A stretch of DNA of 64,000 nt from the NCBI GenBank assembly GCA_965222605.1, contig OZ244960.1, positions 4,352,001 through 4,416,000 on the forward strand, written 5' to 3'. The DNA is from Candidatus Latescibacterota bacterium. Its GTDB lineage: Bacteria; Latescibacterota; UBA2968. Made by a program: the position numbers and the translations under genes. Below the pieces are notes generated by a model. The model did no database searches, was not told the DNA's origin, and worked only from the letters and a program-made list of their open reading frames with translations. Shown here in pieces: positions 1 to 36,837 of this stretch; the first letter of the stretch is position 1; each line of letters opens with the position of its first letter.

Positions 1-1962
1 TGCCGTCCGGAAGATGCGCGATTTGCCCTTTGCCCTGAGGAGAATCGTGCCTCTGCTGTCTGGAATGGGGTTGCCGGGAGTCCGCCCTGATGTGATTTCG
101 AAGGGGCCGTCGGAAACGGCAAGTAGGCGCAGCCAAACCCGATCGGAAATTCGCCAATCTACGCAGAGAGTTCCGTCTGTGGAAGTGGTCTGGCGATCCC
201 TGAGCCAGGCAAATACGCCGTAGTGCGACAGAGGCGGGAAATCGAGGTCATCGATAACGTTTGATGGACGAACAATCATGCCGCCTCTAGCATGAAATAC
301 CCACGCGTACCGGTGGATGGTATCGGACGTGCAGCGATCTTCGATCCATATGTAGGGCGGTCCGAACCGGATGCGGCGTTCCAATTCCACACCCTCGTAC
401 GCGTCTTCGAGTACGGCAGATGCCAGTCGAGGATCTATTTCACGGAATTCCAGCCGGGCCTTTTCCACTGGTTGCTGATTCTGCTCATCTACCATCAGGG
501 TGTTATGCGACAATGTGCTTCTGTAATAAGCATGGATGTCGCTGGCAGCATAGCCCGCGGTGCCGAGATCGGACGCGATTTGTAATCCGAGGGCCCTGAG
601 ATCGATAGACAGCTTATCGGGATGGTCGTGACCAGCTCCGTGCGCACCTCCTTTGAACAAAAGATAGAAAGGGCCTTCGGCTGTATCTTCTCGAAAGATG
701 CCGAAGCCCATGGCCGAAAGATGGGTGGATTTTTGCGACAGCGGATCTGCATCGATCTCGTCAGGGCCGAAGGCGAGTGCGGTCAGGCTGTTGCGGGGAA
801 TACCTCGCTTGTATATGGCGCTGAGCGTTTCTGTGAACAGATCGCCGCCGAGTTGTCCCGCAGCGTATTCGTAAACGTGTCTGTAGATGGCCAGAGAACG
901 TGAACCAGGCGAGCCCAGGTCGCCCACGCATGGCAGGTCGAGATTCTGATCGCACATGTGTATAGGTGCTTCGAACAGCTTTTCAAAACGGGTTTGGATA
1001 TCCTGGGTCACCTGACCTTGCTGGCGAAGCATTTCAAACACAGTGACCATGGGACAGACCGAGTAGAAATGGTAGAACATGGTCCCTTCAAACCAAAATC
1101 CATCCACCTTGCCTTCCGGATCGGTCCTCAATCCATCGGTAAGTAGCGCAGACAGGCCTCCCCGGTCGCCGCCCAGACCCATCGAAAGCCAGTCTTCGTG
1201 GCCGGTCGCCTCACCGGAGAGAGCCAGGCACGCACCCACGTAACAGGTCATATTGTGCGCGCCTGTACGTTCGAAGAATTGGATCTGCGAAGGCATCCCG
1301 GCTTCAAAGATCCCTTCGCGGATGGTTTGATGGTCGGTGCTGGAATACGCCTCGCTGTCGCGCGTCCAGGAGTAAGCGTTAGCTATTAGAGCCAGCACTT
1401 GGGCATCGTAAAGCGGCTGGAAATAGAGGGCGTCACCGTGGTTCCCTTCGCGGAGATCTTCCCGGGTGAAAAACTGGGCTGTTAGGCGCATCCCTTCGGC
1501 TATCCAACTGGCATAGCGTTCATCCTCGGTGAGGCCGTAGAGCAGTCCCAGACTGCGCATAAGGCGATAGGTACGTTCGTGGGTGAGCAGTGTCCAGGCC
1601 CGGTGTTGGACTTCACTTTCGTGGAGTGATTGGTCCGCCGGATCCAGAAATTGATGTGGGCTCTGGGGATCGTAGATCAGATGCTCGGCGGTGGTGTGCG
1701 AGTAGAAGTCGTGACGCCACCCTATCCGTTCTTCGGGTAGCTGCGGTGGTTTTTTGAGTACAATCTCGGCTTCTTCTTGCATCTGTGAGAGGGAATCGGC
1801 GGCCCACTGCAGTGCGTCTGTTTTTCTGCGGATTTCTTCCAGGCGTTCTGCGCCAAAGAAAATTGTCGGCCAGACATCCTCGATGACCATACCCGAGTCA
1901 TAGGGCGATAACGTGTAGGGCCATTGAAAGGAGCCGACACTTGTCGTGGGTGTTTCGGTCAT
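1..1962 (-). CDS. Heparinase II/III-like polysaccharide lyase (PL17/PL15-like), runs off the left window edge
   Basis: Absent from the ORF track because there is no stop inside the window. Manual translation from ATG 1962 (RBS GAGGAG) stays open to base 1: MTETPTTSV...GAHNM...DGFWFEGTMFYHFY...GAGHDHPDKL...DLGTAGY...YYRSTLSHNTLMVDEQNQ, motifs typical of heparinase II/III-like and oligoalginate lyases. Confidence 0.85.
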   Translation of the reverse strand, partial: MTETPTTSVGSFQWPYTLSPYDSGMVIEDVWPTIFFGAERLEEIRRKTDALQWAADSLSQMQEEAEIVLKKPPQLPEERIGWRHDFYSHTTAEHLIYDPQSPHQFLDPADQSLHESEVQHRAWTLLTHERTYRLMRSLGLLYGLTEDERYASWIAEGMRLTAQFFTREDLREGNHGDALYFQPLYDAQVLALIANAYSWTRDSEAYSSTDHQTIREGIFEAGMPSQIQFFERTGAHNMTCYVGACLALSGEATGHEDWLSMGLGGDRGGLSALLTDGLRTDPEGKVDGFWFEGTMFYHFYSVCPMVTVFEMLRQQGQVTQDIQTRFEKLFEAPIHMCDQNLDLPCVGDLGSPGSRSLAIYRHVYEYAAGQLGGDLFTETLSAIYKRGIPRNSLTALAFGPDEIDADPLSQKSTHLSAMGFGIFREDTAEGPFYLLFKGGAHGAGHDHPDKLSIDLRALGLQIASDLGTAGYAASDIHAYYRSTLSHNTLMVDEQNQQPVEKARLEFREIDPRLASAVLEDAYEGVELERRIRFGPPYIWIEDRCTSDTIHRYAWVFHARGGMIVRPSNVIDDLDFPPLSHYGVFAWLRDRQTTSTDGTLCVDWRISDRVWLRLLAVSDGPFEITSGRTPGNPIPDSRGTILLRAKGKSRIFRTA

Positions 1963-2000
1963 TTCATCTCCTCAGATTGCCAGCTATTTTCGACTGCGGC

Positions 2001-2070
2001 AAAAAAAGAAAAGCCTCCTTAGTTCAGATCTTGGCGCCACACCAAATATCCATCAAGCTAAGGAGGCCTT
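2001..2070 (-). terminator. Hairpin with U-tract between the PorV-like gene and the lyase
   Basis: Stem GCCTCCTTAG/CTAAGGAGGC with an inner imperfect stem, followed on the minus strand by TTTTCTTTTTTT. Confidence 0.6.
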
Positions 2071-2169
2071 CATAAGGAATATGGACTTATCTCTATTCAG
2101 TGATCCGGAGACTCACAGTTAGTTTCGTATTGACGGTATCGGGCTTTGTGATATTGTCCCAGGTCTGGT

Positions 2170-3153
2170 TCAAAATGCAACTCCCACTGAAAACCGGCTC
2201 ACATTGGCGAAAAACTCGTTCCTGGTAAAGGAATAATCGACCATGACCTGCGTCTCGCCGATACGTTGCTTCACGCCGGCTCCCGCGGTCAGGCTTTCCA
2301 TATCGTGATTGAACTTATAGCCAACCCGGAGCGCCAGCATTTCCTGAAACCAGTATTCTCCGCCCAGGTAGATCCGCTCGCTGAAATCGCGCGGGTGGAT
2401 GGCGTCGAATGCCAGCGACAGAGAATGTGAGGGAGAGTCAAGGAGTTCCATTGCGGCGCCGATATGGAACGTCAGCGGAAGCTGAAAACCGATCTTCTGG
2501 TATTCGATTTCTGGCGAGAAGTTCCGAATGTAGATCCCCAGTCTCAGGCTCCTCAACCCGGTGTAGTAGATGGTCCCAAACGTGAAGTTTATCGCATCCG
2601 CTTTGTTATCAACGGCCACGTTGGATGTCCCCACGGGTGAGATTATGCTTGAGCCCAGATGCTCGGACACATACTTGATCTGGCCCCCGATGAAGAACTT
2701 GTTTGTCAACTGCTTGGAATAAGCAAGTCCCGCAAAATAGGCCCCCACGTCGATGCTTCCCGTCTCGGTAAATCCCTTCTCGTTCCCGGCGACCTGCGTC
2801 CCGATCAATTCACCGTAATTGACAGCGCCGAAGTTCACTGCAAAAATCCCGTGAGATGCCTTGTAGGCAGTTCCCAGTGCCGTATAGTTGATGTCCGCGA
2901 TCCACTGAACTCGGTGTGCGACCATCTGGATCTTAGAGTCCATGCGGGCCATGCCGGCCGGATTGTAGAACATAGCATCGGCGCCGTCACCTACCATCGA
3001 ATACGCTCCGCCCATTGCCTCCGCCCGCGCACTGAGACCAATCTTCAGAAATTGAAACCCCGTCTGGGCCAGTTTCTTCTTCTGGGCCTGGGCAGGTGTA
3101 ACCAGGCACACAAACATCAGCAGTATCAGAGTTAAACCCATACATTTTTTCAT
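2170..3153 (-). CDS. PorV/PorQ-family (UPF0164-like) outer-membrane beta-barrel
   Basis: Signal peptide from MKKCMG, FLKIGLSARAEAMGGA and FYNPAG motifs, C-terminal Phe. Start moved to ATG 3153. Confidence 0.8.
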   Translation of the reverse strand: MKKCMGLTLILLMFVCLVTPAQAQKKKLAQTGFQFLKIGLSARAEAMGGAYSMVGDGADAMFYNPAGMARMDSKIQMVAHRVQWIADINYTALGTAYKASHGIFAVNFGAVNYGELIGTQVAGNEKGFTETGSIDVGAYFAGLAYSKQLTNKFFIGGQIKYVSEHLGSSIISPVGTSNVAVDNKADAINFTFGTIYYTGLRSLRLGIYIRNFSPEIEYQKIGFQLPLTFHIGAAMELLDSPSHSLSLAFDAIHPRDFSERIYLGGEYWFQEMLALRVGYKFNHDMESLTAGAGVKQRIGETQVMVDYSFTRNEFFANVSRFSVGVAF

Positions 3154-34269: not shown

Positions 34270-35082
34270 TTACAAATTGTCCAATACTGCGCGCAATTGC
34301 CGTACGCCTTTTAGCATTAATTCCGGCGATCCCCAGTGTTCAATACTCACATTGCCGGTATAACCGTCTGATAGGACCATTTTGAGCAGGTCTTCGTATT
34401 GCATATTGCTTTCGCGAATGGGGTCCAGTTCTTTATCGGGATTGGGCTTGACGTGCAGATGGGTGATCCGTCCTTTAATCTGTTCATATCCGTCGGGTAC
34501 GGCTTGTTCGCCACATCCAACGCCGTTGTTCACATCCCAGCAAAAGCTAAATCCCGTTGTATCGCCCAGGGCGTCGGCGACCATTCTCGCTTCCGCGCAA
34601 CTGCCGGCAATGGTCGCGCCTTCATTTTCCAGTGATAGGGTGACGCCTTCGCGTTCGGCCGTTTTGGCAATGGGTTCGAGAAATGGCACGATGACATCGA
34701 GATAATTCTCAACGCCGGGTCGATTTTCCCGGTCTCCTTGTCTCCGATTGGGATTCCACAGGGAAAATCCGCGGATGACGGTTGTGTTAAACGCTTTTGC
34801 CAGTTCGATCATGCGGTCAAACATGCGCTGGTGTCCGGCTTTTTCTCGGTCGCTGTCGTGCGCGCATTTGCCCACGGGCGAGCCAACGGACATAACGGTC
34901 GCGTTATACTTTGCCAGTACGTCCTGGACGCGCTTCAATTCGTCGTTGTCGATTTCCTGTACGCGCTTGCCCCAGATGCCGCCGCGCAGTTCAATCCCCG
35001 TTGCACCCGCTTCTACGCCCAGGCGCACAGATTTATCAAAATCGGCTTTGTCGATTTCATCTGCAAAATAGCACAGTTCCAT
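34270..35082 (-). CDS. Sugar phosphate isomerase/epimerase (xylose-isomerase-like TIM barrel)
   Basis: FADEI, LENE, WDVNN, HLHVK, SIEH. Confidence 0.88.
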   Translation of the reverse strand: MELCYFADEIDKADFDKSVRLGVEAGATGIELRGGIWGKRVQEIDNDELKRVQDVLAKYNATVMSVGSPVGKCAHDSDREKAGHQRMFDRMIELAKAFNTTVIRGFSLWNPNRRQGDRENRPGVENYLDVIVPFLEPIAKTAEREGVTLSLENEGATIAGSCAEARMVADALGDTTGFSFCWDVNNGVGCGEQAVPDGYEQIKGRITHLHVKPNPDKELDPIRESNMQYEDLLKMVLSDGYTGNVSIEHWGSPELMLKGVRQLRAVLDNL

Positions 35083-35131
35083 CCCTTCCCCCTAATAAGT
35101 GGTCAACGTGACTTGGTGCCATATCATATAA

Positions 35132-35262
35132 GGGAATTATATACTTTAATAACCGTCAGGCTACGAGTATATTTCTTGCTTCTTTGTGCATTGCCACAAT
35201 ACTTGCTGGTCTTACATGCACTCCACAAGCGTAAATTTCGGGCATTCCAACCGTATTATTGC
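35132..35262 (-). ncRNA. Putative TnpB omega-RNA/reRNA scaffold
   Basis: Overlaps the tnpB 3' end. ACGGTTGGAATGCCCGAAATTTACGCTTGTGGAGTGCAT...GTAAGAC...ATGCACAAAGAAGCAAGAA resembles IS605/IS1341 right-end RNA sequence. Boundaries are approximate. Confidence 0.55.
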
Positions 35263-36346
35263 GAACATTTATCGCCGCGTTTATGTCTCTGTCATGCTCT
35301 GTAAAGCATTCTGGACACGTCCATACCCTGACGTGTAATGGCATATCGTCAACTTTATGACCACATAAAGAGCACGTCTTTGACGACGGATAAAAGGTAT
35401 CCAATTTCACTATGTCACGCCCATACCAATCGGCTTTGTAGCACAAAAAGGACACAAACTGTCCCCATGAGACATCGGCGATTGCTCTGGATAGACGCCT
35501 GTTCTTCAGCATATTTTGTATTTTGAGACTCTCTACGCCTATTGCTTGGTTCTCGTCAATAAGCATTTTTGAGAGTTTATGCTGAAAATTACGCCTCACA
35601 TTGGCAATCTTTGATTGTATCTTTGCCACTTTAAGTCTTGCTTTGTCTCTGTTCTTTGACCCTTTTTTACGTCTCGATAACACTCTTTGAGTACGTATCA
35701 GCTTCTTATATAAGGAATCAAATACTCTCGGATTTGCTATTTTGTCGCCATCAGACGTAATAGCAAAGTGGTTGATACCGAGATCAATGCCTATCTTTGC
35801 TTTGAGTGGTTTGAGTTGTGCTATTGTCTCAATGACTGATATAGAGACAAAATACCGACCACATGTGTCTTTGGACACAGTGGCACTGCGTATCTCACAT
35901 TCTTTTGGCAGTGGCCTGTGATAATTCACTTTTATGTCGCCGTCTATTTTTTGTAGCTTAATACCTCGCTCTATGAGACAAAAATCATTGTGCCTGTAAT
36001 ACGCACTCTGGCGAGCATACTTGCTCTTAAACTTAGGCTTTCCTGCTTGACCCTTGAAAAATCTATTGAAAGCTGTGTTGAGATTCCTTAATGCTTGCGT
36101 CAATGGTATCCGCAACACGTCATTGAGCCACAACTTGTCTGTTTCTTGCTTCAAAAGCGTCAGGTCTCTCGATAATTGTGTAATTGAAAGAGACTCGTTG
36201 CTTTCACGATATGCCGATTGTTTTTTGTCCAGTGCCCAGTTATAGACATATCGGACACAACCGAATGTCTGTGAAAGTGACAAACACTGTGCTTTGTTAG
36301 GATAGAGGCGATACTTATATGCCTTATATATAGCCACCTTTTTCAT
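35156..36346 (-). CDS. tnpB: RNA-guided endonuclease TnpB (IS200/IS605 OrfB family)
   Basis: N-terminal YKYRLYPN...FGCVRYVYN; RuvC GIDLG, GVESL, DRDINAA; Zn finger CSLC...CPEC. Confidence 0.96.
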   Translation of the reverse strand: MKKVAIYKAYKYRLYPNKAQCLSLSQTFGCVRYVYNWALDKKQSAYRESNESLSITQLSRDLTLLKQETDKLWLNDVLRIPLTQALRNLNTAFNRFFKGQAGKPKFKSKYARQSAYYRHNDFCLIERGIKLQKIDGDIKVNYHRPLPKECEIRSATVSKDTCGRYFVSISVIETIAQLKPLKAKIGIDLGINHFAITSDGDKIANPRVFDSLYKKLIRTQRVLSRRKKGSKNRDKARLKVAKIQSKIANVRRNFQHKLSKMLIDENQAIGVESLKIQNMLKNRRLSRAIADVSWGQFVSFLCYKADWYGRDIVKLDTFYPSSKTCSLCGHKVDDMPLHVRVWTCPECFTEHDRDINAAINVRNNTVGMPEIYACGVHVRPASIVAMHKEARNILVA

Positions 36347-36451
36347 AGTATAAATATACATAAAAACAATACGTTGTGCAACAAAAATACACATCAATGG
36401 TTACTAAAATATATAATTCCCTTATTTTTGATTTTTCATTATCATGAGCGT

Positions 36452-36772
36452 ATGAATGAACAGACACGCAAAAAAATTCTGCAATCCACACCGCACCAGA
36501 AGGGGATTCGCAAGGTCGATAGAAAACGCCTGCTCGCGCAATTGGCCCGCGCTGAGCCGCCGCCCGATTACGATCGCTATATGCGATCCAAATCGTGGCA
36601 AATTAAAAGGCAGAAGTTTCTCGCCCATTACAATTGCCAATGCGTTCTGTGCGGTAGCAAAGAGCATTTACACGTCCACCACCTGCACTATCAGACCCTG
36701 GGCAAAGAGCGCGTGGAAGATGTGATTGTTTGCTGCAGGCGGTGTCATTTTATTGAACACTTTAAGAAGTGA
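36452..36772 (+). CDS. Small HNH endonuclease
   Basis: Y.RYM.S..W...R, CVLCG...LHVHH..Y..LG.E...CRRCH. Confidence 0.85.
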   Translation: MNEQTRKKILQSTPHQKGIRKVDRKRLLAQLARAEPPPDYDRYMRSKSWQIKRQKFLAHYNCQCVLCGSKEHLHVHHLHYQTLGKERVEDVIVCCRRCHFIEHFKK

Positions 36773-36783
36773 TCCAGTGTTTT

Positions 36784-36809
36784 GTAGGGGCGGGTCCCCG
36801 TGCCCGCCC
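36784..36809 (+). repeat. GTAG-type REP-like palindrome
   Basis: GTAGGGGCGGGTCCCCGTGCCCGCCC. Confidence 0.7.
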
Positions 36810-36837
36810 GCAAGTGGAATTATTTCCGGAGATTTTC

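Follow-up and report, generated by a model that had tools for sequence, protein, structure and literature searches.

A tnpB gene within terminal inverted repeats

We analyzed a window of 64,000 nucleotides (nt) from the genome of a Candidatus Latescibacterota bacterium (contig OZ244960.1, positions 4,352,001 to 4,416,000 of the forward strand; coordinates below are those of the window unless stated otherwise). Its minus strand carries a non-autonomous element of 1290 bp (35132..36421), in which an ISDra2-like tnpB gene and the region of its predicted guide RNA (omega-RNA) are enclosed by terminal inverted repeats of the type found in the insertion sequence (IS) family IS1595. TnpB, an RNA-guided DNA endonuclease, is usually carried by IS200/IS605 elements with hairpin ends. 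A repeat search returned one outstanding pair of arms, 35128-35154 and 36399-36425, which are 27 nt long and 93% complementary. Uninterrupted sites in sister genomes place the ends of the element: in the aligned junctions, homology breaks off after 35131 and restarts at 36422, so that the element ends at 35132 (GGG) and 36421 (CCC), and the outermost four nt of each arm (ATAA/TTAT) therefore belong to the flanking DNA. The true terminal repeat comprises 23 nt, 21 of which match. In tnpB orientation, the right-end repeat is located at 35132..35154 (minus strand; plus-strand letters GGGAATTATATACTTTAATAACC) and contains the core GGGAMTTATATAC, which is common to IS1595-family elements of the genus, while the left-end repeat (36399..36421, minus strand) lies 52 nt upstream of the tnpB start codon. 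With up to three mismatches allowed, the window 23-mer occurs only at these two sites in the 6.3-Mb genome (control: 0). Since it is confined to the element in this genome and is also kept at the ends of homologues of 50-59% identity, the repeat is not a chance similarity. The G+C content is about 0.53 in the flanks and 0.36-0.44 in the element interior. The inverted repeats around tnpB, which a preliminary description of this locus had reported, are thus real.

The only long open reading frame between the repeat arms is tnpB (35156..36346, minus strand), encoding 396 amino acids (aa) plus stop. Homology favors the ATG at 36346-36344 as start codon. The stop codon occupies 35156-35158 and begins 1 bp from the repeat, which ends at 35154, as had been noticed before. 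Protein searches were performed with 35159-36349, a query of 397 aa with one extra N-terminal residue, and the residue numbers given here follow this query. The protein matches the Pfam domains OrfB_IS605 (PF01385, 3.1e-27), Cas12f1-like_TNB (PF07282, 1.2e-24), and HTH_OrfB_IS605 (PF12323, 2.3e-18), as well as the NCBIfam model guided_TnpB (NF040570, 346 bits, cut-off 100); its score against NF038281 (IS200_TnpB) is 417.8 bits, slightly below the cut-off of 425. Residues 9-384 can be aligned with the ISDra2 TnpB structures 8H1J and 8BF8 (E about 1e-78), and both the zinc finger and the residues that we take to be catalytic in ISDra2 TnpB match. The three acidic RuvC residues (D189/E273/D355) and the zinc finger (C326/C329/C345/C348; CxxC...CxxC), described earlier as intact, are invariant in the seven clade members aligned. 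The window TnpB is probably an active nuclease. The TnpB lineage is under purifying selection: the ratio of nonsynonymous to synonymous substitution rates (dN/dS) is 0.11-0.14 at a dS of 0.23-0.45 for the copy at locus L028 compared to L029, L030, and L031 (three pairs). In the same comparisons, dS drops to 0.19-0.21 in the C-terminal tail of tnpB, which overlaps the RNA.

Upstream of tnpB, a weak promoter-like match (TGCACA-16-TATATT; 36353..36380, minus strand) agrees with the consensus only; the region holds 5 promoter-like sites compared to 4.3 ± 1.9 in shuffled sequences, and the promoter and terminator scan did not rise above shuffles. The left repeat holds an outward promoter-like match on the plus strand (TACACA-18-TATAAT, 10/12; 36388-36417), likewise a consensus match only, which faces the downstream reading frame.

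No Y1 (HUH) TnpA was found in the window element or around eight sister copies, no open reading frame for a serine recombinase TnpA of the IS607 type in or beside the window element, and no gene for a DDE_Tnp_IS1595 transposase in the element, where tnpB fills the space. This agrees with the preliminary description, which had noted that tnpA is missing. Next to the element lie a TIM-barrel gene of the xylose-isomerase-like type and a small HNH-like reading frame.

The repeats are ends of IS1595-family elements

The 13-mer core GGGAMTTATATAC gave 139 matches in 19/21 genomes of the genus, compared to three for the reversed control. In genome G082, 69 matches were found, mostly as plus/minus pairs about 1.24 kb apart. 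Twenty repeat-bounded regions from genus genomes were taken for inspection, and 19 repeat pairs were scored for target duplications. The 1.24-kb repeat-bounded unit encodes a 312-aa protein with the domains DDE_Tnp_IS1595 (PF12762, 2.8e-40) and Zn_ribbon_IS1595 (PF12760), which scores 185 bits against NF033547 (cut-off 75). Flush 8-bp duplications at AT-rich sites were perfect for 13 of the 19 pairs, and two more reached 7/8. The ends had been called IS1595-like in the preliminary description, which had proposed looking for 8-bp duplications and IS1595 transposases; the same repeat indeed bounds transposase-bearing IS1595-family elements, and both features co-occur with these ends. Their tip GGGAATTAT presumably fits the end consensus of the ISNwi1 group. 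Further units bounded by these ends are miniature inverted-repeat transposable elements (MITEs) of 183 bp, elements of 4.9-9.8 kb with IS1595 transposase and passenger genes, and a 2.7-kb unit with an IS607-like tnpA-tnpB pair.

Several of these elements deserve a description of their own. Genome G082 (5.7 Mb), with its 69 core matches, has undergone a burst of the 1.24-kb IS (e.g., L066-L069, L081-L083), in many copies of which the transposase reading frame is split (193 + 117 aa) or shortened (0.64-1.05 kb). The 4.9-9.8-kb elements at L070, L071, and L074 (G082, G072) carry the transposase together with passenger genes inside IS1595-type repeats. The passenger of L070 is a 1042-aa Type ISP restriction-modification enzyme, and the 9.8-kb unit of L071 apparently occurs twice in G082, as judged solely by a second repeat pair of equal spacing. 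In G085, the 183-bp MITE is present three times (L078-L080), each time with these repeats and an 8-bp duplication. The same genome harbors the 2.7-kb element (L077, G085:C1:2874281-2877619; positions 301-3039 therein), which is bounded by IS1595-type repeats and a perfect 8-bp duplication (TTATTTTT). Its cargo consists of a 191-aa reading frame with a MerR-like helix-turn-helix start, as read by eye, and a 511-aa TnpB-like reading frame (Cas12f1-like_TNB, HTH_OrfB_IS605). L077 may preserve a stage in the enclosure of a TnpB element by IS1595-type repeats.

Sister cassettes and the insertion site

TnpB elements with these ends were found at nine places in 8/168 genomes of the phylum, all belonging to one genus, with identities of 50-59%. 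Each genome has one cassette, except for G077 with two. In an alignment of the flanks, conservation starts with GGGA(A/C)TTATATAC on the left and stops after GTATATAA(T/A)TCCC on the right, that is, exactly at the repeat tips, where the preliminary description had suggested looking. It had also named the findings that would speak against it, namely homologues without the repeats or with standard ends and their own TnpA: the 50-59% homologues keep the repeats, and standard IS605 ends or a Y1 TnpA appear only among relatives of 36-51% identity. The inner part of the repeat differs between the cassette lineages but agrees within each element. Where cassette loci were compared with sister genomes, homology likewise broke off exactly at the tips.

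On either side, the copy at L028 is bordered by TTTGTTAA, a perfect 8-bp duplication. The corresponding empty site in G078 contains a single copy (TTTGTAAA) and continues with the downstream sequence of L028. The duplication matches at 7/8 positions for L032 and at 6/8 for L030; the remaining cassettes have none. The bases 5′ of the duplication are GATAT for L028 and AATGA for L032, so that these two informative copies reveal no consensus motif. L031 replaces a gene-bearing segment of 931 bp, and its left end lacks the first two nt. Losses of adjacent DNA are apparently common around these older, low-copy TnpB cassettes; because at least one of the losses is on the left, we do not ascribe them to TnpB. 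In addition, G080:C1:163525-164072 holds a truncated cassette of the L028-31 type, which retains the left repeat and about 550 initial bp with 87-88% identity.

When 3 kb comprising the element and its surroundings were used as query, the two flanks turned out to be adjacent in sister genomes. Five uninterrupted sites (L170, L171, L172, L173, L176) consist of GCCATATCATATAA, 42 bp, and TTATTTTTGATTTTT; a sixth (L181) differs from them solely in its final bases. According to this alignment, about 42 bp of target DNA are missing at the junction 35131..35132. The simplest reading is that the window copy inserted at an AT-rich 8-mer such as TTATTTTT and that about 42-50 bp of adjacent target were subsequently lost. 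The search for an empty site, another of the earlier suggestions, was also successful in metagenomes. In DNA run X3, an empty-site contig joins 35093 to 36431 at a depth of 36, compared to 6.9 for the element-bearing contig, and in run X7 the empty-site joint 35131-36431 has a depth of 25 versus about 45. The window insertion is therefore polymorphic, with occupied and empty forms coexisting in both runs. In another contig of run X3, 2199 bp are enclosed by arms that hardly differ from those of the window element, with TTTTTTTG and TTATTTTG as flanks.

Probable origin from IS200/IS605-type relatives

A metagenome scan with the clade alignment gave 510 relatives, of which the best 80 (36-51% identity) were kept. 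Eleven of these, in which a contig end truncates the gene, and two with short flanks were left out of the scan for terminal repeats. None of the 67 metagenomic relatives scanned has terminal inverted repeats (best scores 7-14). Instead, their left flank ends with TTAT or TTTAT, which suggests TTAT as target-adjacent motif, they carry GC-rich subterminal hairpins, and their right end reads ...GATGTCA(A/C). A Y1_Tnp gene lies upstream of tnpB in three of 24 relative loci (L090, L094, L095); no DDE transposase was found in these 24 loci among the 32/99 flank reading frames scanned, which were chosen by eye from those upstream of tnpB. In a quick maximum-likelihood tree of 48 rows, the nine repeat-bounded TnpBs form one group with a Shimodaira-Hasegawa-like approximate likelihood ratio support of 99. 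Since they form one clade, the capture would have happened once, which points to a single capture from an IS605-type ancestor. In the window element, the GC hairpin and the GATGTCA(A/C) right end of these relatives are absent, and no IS605-type hairpin was found between the left repeat and the start codon. The missing GC-rich subterminal hairpin, already remarked upon in the preliminary description, is therefore a genuine difference from the relatives without repeats.

The right repeat and the omega-RNA

The predicted omega-RNA scaffold of the window element is 122 nt long (35132..35253, minus strand) and would extend from a 5′ hairpin, CGGUU-GGAAU-GCCCG, to the tip of the right repeat. Relatives without repeats have scaffolds of 141-145 nt (182 nt for L086) with a parallel layout. 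Their RNA ends with CCUGUGGAG-GUAAGACC, a hairpin, GAAGCAGGAA, hairpin A, a GC hairpin B, and (G)GAUGUCA(A/C), followed by the guide. In clade members, the repeat takes the place of all that follows GAAGCAGGAA, in the order AUAUAC, loop, GUAUAU, and AAUUCCC. A single terminal hairpin thus stands in for the two hairpins and the GATGTCA(A/C) end of the relatives. The earlier observation that an omega-RNA-like sequence runs directly into the repeat holds, as GAAGCAGGAA is followed by the repeat. The terminal hairpin (AUAUACU...AGUAUAU; 35139..35172, minus strand) would be the analogue of stem 4, with the inner repeat as its 3′ arm. It was obtained in single-sequence folds of the window and likewise of L029, which were used at this place because RNAalifold does not resolve this hairpin across lineages that differ in length there.

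The predicted stems are supported by covariation: three of 19 pairs change on both sides, one in each of three helices, as determined by RNAalifold and explicit pair counts. Moreover, 94.7% of the cells are paired in the clade RNA stems, compared to 29-56% with the partners slid, and nucleotide conservation in the RNA region continues where the reading frames differ. An E-value scan of 34800-36800 against Rfam gave no match. Metatranscriptome run X20 yielded one contig of 180 nt within tnpB (35526-35705) and none over the RNA region; this run gives no ends or strand, and carry-over of DNA is possible.

The conserved 5-bp hairpin with its covarying stem carries a 5-nt loop. In ISDra2, positions -5 to -3 of the RNA pair with -103 to -105, forming a pseudoknot just before the guide that is preceded by stem 4, according to the available text of Nakagawa et al. 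(2023; PMC10097598). The loop of the window RNA, GGAAU (35244..35248, minus strand), lies at the place of ISDra2 positions -106 to -102 and is proposed as the 5′ strand of a corresponding pseudoknot. The 3′ strand would be AUUCC (-6 to -2; 35133..35137, minus strand) in the repeat tip, followed by C at -1 (35132). In 22 rows of relatives, the loop is GGACU, GGGCU, or GGGCA, and its positions 2-4 can pair with GUC at -5 to -3. In the five rows of clade A, the loop is GGAAU (also GGUAU or GGAGU) and pairs with AUUCC at -6 to -2 of the repeat tip. The pairing GAA:UUC in clade A compared to G(A/G)C:GUC in the relatives amounts to a change from C:G to A:U. The first three pairs of the proposed pseudoknot can form in 8/8, 8/8, and 7/8 sequences, and in the minimum free energy fold computed for the window RNA, GGAAU and AUUCC are paired directly with each other.

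Since the tip AAUUCCC can pair with the loop GGAAU where ISDra2 forms its pseudoknot, the flank would be the guide. The present candidate guide in the right-end flank, TTATATGATATGGCAC (35116..35131, minus strand), is assigned by position and by analogy with ISDra2, as far as the latter is described in the text available; this flank would have come next to the element after the 42-bp loss. A role of the repeat as scaffold 3′ end and of the flank as guide is therefore plausible by analogy. Both parts had been put forward in the preliminary description and still stand as proposals; by analogy with ISDra2, the repeat can provide a pseudoknot strand and an arm of the last stem.

Interpretation and alternative explanations

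Taken together, we interpret 35132-36421 as a transposase-less derivative of the IS1595 family that carries an ISDra2-like tnpB with its omega-RNA region, and put the probability of this reading, including origin, trans-mobility, and RNA model, at about 75%. The starting point would have been an IS200/IS605-type tnpB element that, in an ancestor belonging to this genus of Latescibacterota, lost both hairpin ends and came to lie between IS1595 repeats. The unit would then be moved in trans by IS1595 transposases that recognize the shared repeats, resulting in 8-bp target duplications; the presence/absence polymorphism supports such trans-mobilization indirectly. The right repeat would have been built into the omega-RNA, its inner part as the 3′ arm of the last stem and its tip AAUUCCC as the pseudoknot strand pairing with GGAAU, the loop of the first hairpin. 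Transcription would continue into the flanking DNA to provide the guide, which in a new insertion would have the 8-bp duplication as its first nucleotides. TnpB could then cut element-free alleles that have a suitable adjacent motif, which would favor retention or homing as in IS605. The window copy would have lost its duplication together with about 42-50 bp of adjacent target. The capture of TnpB by an IS1595-like element, as already proposed in the preliminary description, is borne out by the shared ends, the flush duplications, and the 8-bp duplication of L028 with its empty site.

A number of observations weigh against this interpretation. The window copy has no 8-bp duplication (AAAAATAA vs. 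TTATATGA, 4/8), and among eight scorable TnpB copies a perfect one was found only once, with one further copy at 7/8 and one at 6/8. Several copies replace 0.75-1.2 kb present in sister genomes. Two of the nine copies have early stops and one lacks the left end. A clear transposase-bearing partner exists only for the lineage of L028-31, the repeats of which agree with the L071 subtype at 11/13 inner positions; for the window subtype, the best inner match to transposase-bearing elements in the 21 genomes is 8/13 (9/13 for L033). A search of these genomes with the window 23-mer (up to three mismatches) gave solo sites, MITEs, and one pair, but no transposase-bearing element; the pair, in G086, spans 1.5 kb without an IS1595 transposase reading frame inside. 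In the window genome (G000), PF12762 was found at two distant places only. The single intact IS1595 transposase gene (G000 2937891-2938820) is 70% identical to that of L074, but a repeat like GGGAATTATATAC (up to three mismatches) is absent within 12 kb of it, and inverted repeats around it do not score above 11. Since its genome has no transposase-bearing element with matching ends, the window copy is probably stranded at present. Moreover, a DDE transposase fixes no target-adjacent motif, so that empty sites suited to cleavage by TnpB may be encountered only occasionally. Concerning the RNA, the proposed pseudoknot helix shows no two-sided change within the clade, the four rows of clade B (loop GGGGA, tip AAAUCCC) form three pairs in the canonical register and four if shifted, and the z-scores of single folds are modest (-0.84 for the window, -1.3 to -2.96 for the others).

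A more far-reaching proposal, to which we would give somewhat less than even odds, is that one 23-bp sequence serves both as the IS1595 end recognized by the transposase and as last-stem arm and pseudoknot strand of the RNA. Each insertion would thereby re-program TnpB, with the new 8-bp duplication as seed, and allow homing on the scarless empty site. The hairpin loop has changed together with the new tip, from GGACU:GUC in the relatives to GGAAU:AUUCC in the window. If this is true, recombination between the two duplications, which removes the element without a scar, would create precisely the empty site at which the ribonucleoprotein is aimed, and a DDE transposon would have gained a restorative homing like that of IS605.

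The alternative that survives best accepts the repeat shell as real but regards TnpB and its omega-RNA as a decaying or re-purposed passenger, the guide-RNA function of which was destroyed when the right end was replaced. It would explain why all genomes but G077 have a single copy, why stops or a lost left end occur and intact duplications are few, and it is in line with the fold z-score of the window, the lack of an Rfam match, and a transposase that guarantees no fixed target-adjacent motif. However, dN/dS is far below one at three distinct loci (L028, L029, L031), the catalytic triad and zinc finger have not changed in the aligned copies, the RNA stems covary, nucleotide conservation persists across differing reading frames, and repeat tip and hairpin loop are still complementary. 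We therefore consider a mere passenger unlikely, although it deserves some weight.

A second alternative, also raised in the preliminary description, is that a small IS1595 MITE received an ordinary tnpB-only element of the IS200/IS605 type after TTGAT, in which case the repeats would have nothing to do with the mobility of TnpB. MITEs of 183 bp with the same repeats do exist in G085, TTGAT is found 24 nt inside the left end of the window element, and L077, with its IS607-like tnpA-tnpB unit inside such repeats, indicates that nesting occurs and may be how the capture began. But TTGAT is present within the left end of only one of eight copies, the GC hairpin and ...GATGTCA(A/C) end with its cleavage site have given way to GAAGCAGGAA running directly into the repeat, there is no IS605-type left-end hairpin before the start codon, and the boundaries of the 50-59%-identical copies are the repeat tips, in one case with a verified 8-bp duplication. 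As an account of the present state, this explanation is largely refuted and very improbable.

Finally, the repeat itself could be the guide, with a scaffold ending before GUAUAUAAUUCCC and TnpB aimed at IS1595 ends including, on the other strand, its own left end; the final 16-18 nt of the element do not vary within a lineage and recur in inverted form at the left end, and since TnpB cleaves its target at the distal end, the cut would fall near the repeat tip, but other IS1595 subtypes differ at 2-6/13 inner-repeat positions on the seed side, the ISDra2 pseudoknot strand (in the text available) is at -6 to -2 immediately before the guide, and with the tip paired to the conserved loop and the inner repeat in the last stem no room is left for a guide inside the element, so that we give this option hardly any credence.

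The transposase-less IS1595 derivative that we favor would illustrate how portable the TnpB/omega-RNA module is, as a lineage related to IS200/IS605 would have moved once into an unrelated DDE shell and then been kept under purifying selection. Natural controls are at hand in the form of transposase-bearing partners and MITEs with the same ends, sister empty sites, and sister lineages without repeats. The system is suited to asking which part of the omega-RNA 3′ end is truly required, how a guide initiated by the duplication works without a fixed adjacent motif, and whether TnpB helps cut-and-paste transposons to persist. A compact ISDra2-like TnpB with a shortened and re-built scaffold end may also be of interest for genome editing.

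Neighboring sequences and other TnpB-like genes

Just beyond the left end, a 106-aa reading frame (36452-36769, plus strand) contains CxxC...HH...CxxC motifs and weakly matches the HNH region of IscB (NF040563, E 1.6e-7, far under the cut-off). Since it is conserved beside empty sites too, this HNH-like reading frame lies outside the element. In the intergenic region upstream of it (36422-36447) and in homologous regions, the number of 6-nt units of the type (A/T)TTTT(C/A/G) varies among genomes. The same region carries differing inserts of 100-400 bp in different genomes and is thus a variable spot. At about 36771-36812, a GC-rich sequence of roughly 30-45 nt, beginning around GTAGGGGCGG, recurs at dozens of sites in several genomes of the genus with 90-100% identity. 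It is also found inside some of the empty-site intergenic regions and resembles repetitive extragenic palindromic (REP) sequences.

TnpB-like matches occur at 33 places in the window genome, the other 32 of which are at most 39% identical to the window TnpB. About 22 intact TnpB-like reading frames of 374-385 aa, with 34-39% identity, resemble a separate multi-copy family of the IS605 type.

Relation to known systems

The association of TnpB with DDE transposons is not new. Altae-Tran et al. (2023, PNAS; PMC10691335) described, in the text available, six DDE-associated TnpB branches (DDE-1 to DDE-6), all with inverted terminal repeats, as well as solo TnpBs that are bounded by nearly the same ends as systems with a transposase; for these solo copies, they inferred trans-mobilization. 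Like these, the window TnpB lies inside inverted repeats of a DDE transposon with its 3′ end close to the transposon end, and it shares with the solo TnpBs ends that match those of transposase-bearing elements, which implies trans-mobilization. Since both DDE-associated and solo TnpBs in inverted ends were described there, the window element is not a new kind; TnpB inside DDE-transposon ends has been known in principle since 2023, but is rarely this clear. The DDE families tied to TnpB are IS630 in the main text of that paper and ISL2, IS630, and IS1031 in the text available of a 2026 review (PMC13565253). IS1595 is mentioned in the accessible part of PMC10691335 solely in a list of transposase profiles, and it was linked to TnpB in no searchable text, as judged in part from titles and abstract openings; Additional Files 10 and 11 of Altae-Tran et al. 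might list cases. In contrast to the named DDE-TnpB families, as far as these texts describe them, the window element has ends of the IS1595 type, the duplication would provide the first eight nt of the guide, and the repeat tip would replace the pseudoknot strand.

Compared to IS1595-family members, the repeats are common to elements with DDE_Tnp_IS1595 and Zn-ribbon domains, the 8-bp duplications lie at AT-rich sites, and the larger members carry passenger genes, but the window element has no transposase, and its cargo is an RNA-guided nuclease the predicted RNA of which overlaps the repeat. A similar picture emerges for Fanzor, the eukaryotic TnpB homologues: according to the accessible text of PMC13565253, these TnpB-family nucleases also ride cut-and-paste transposons with inverted repeats and target duplications. 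Unlike Fanzor, the present case concerns a bacterial host and a compact ISDra2-like TnpB, and the relation is one of analogy only.

With ISDra2 (structures 8H1J and 8BF8/8EXA, in the text available), the window RNA would share the order of 5′ hairpin, long-range stems, last stem, short pseudoknot strand, and guide. Unlike ISDra2, the window element has no Y1 TnpA, no subterminal GC hairpins, and no insertion flush with TTGAT, but inverted repeats and the 8-bp duplication of its family instead, and the last roughly 45 nt of its scaffold are unrelated in sequence. What is new here is the detail of how a transposon repeat would be worked into a guide-RNA scaffold.

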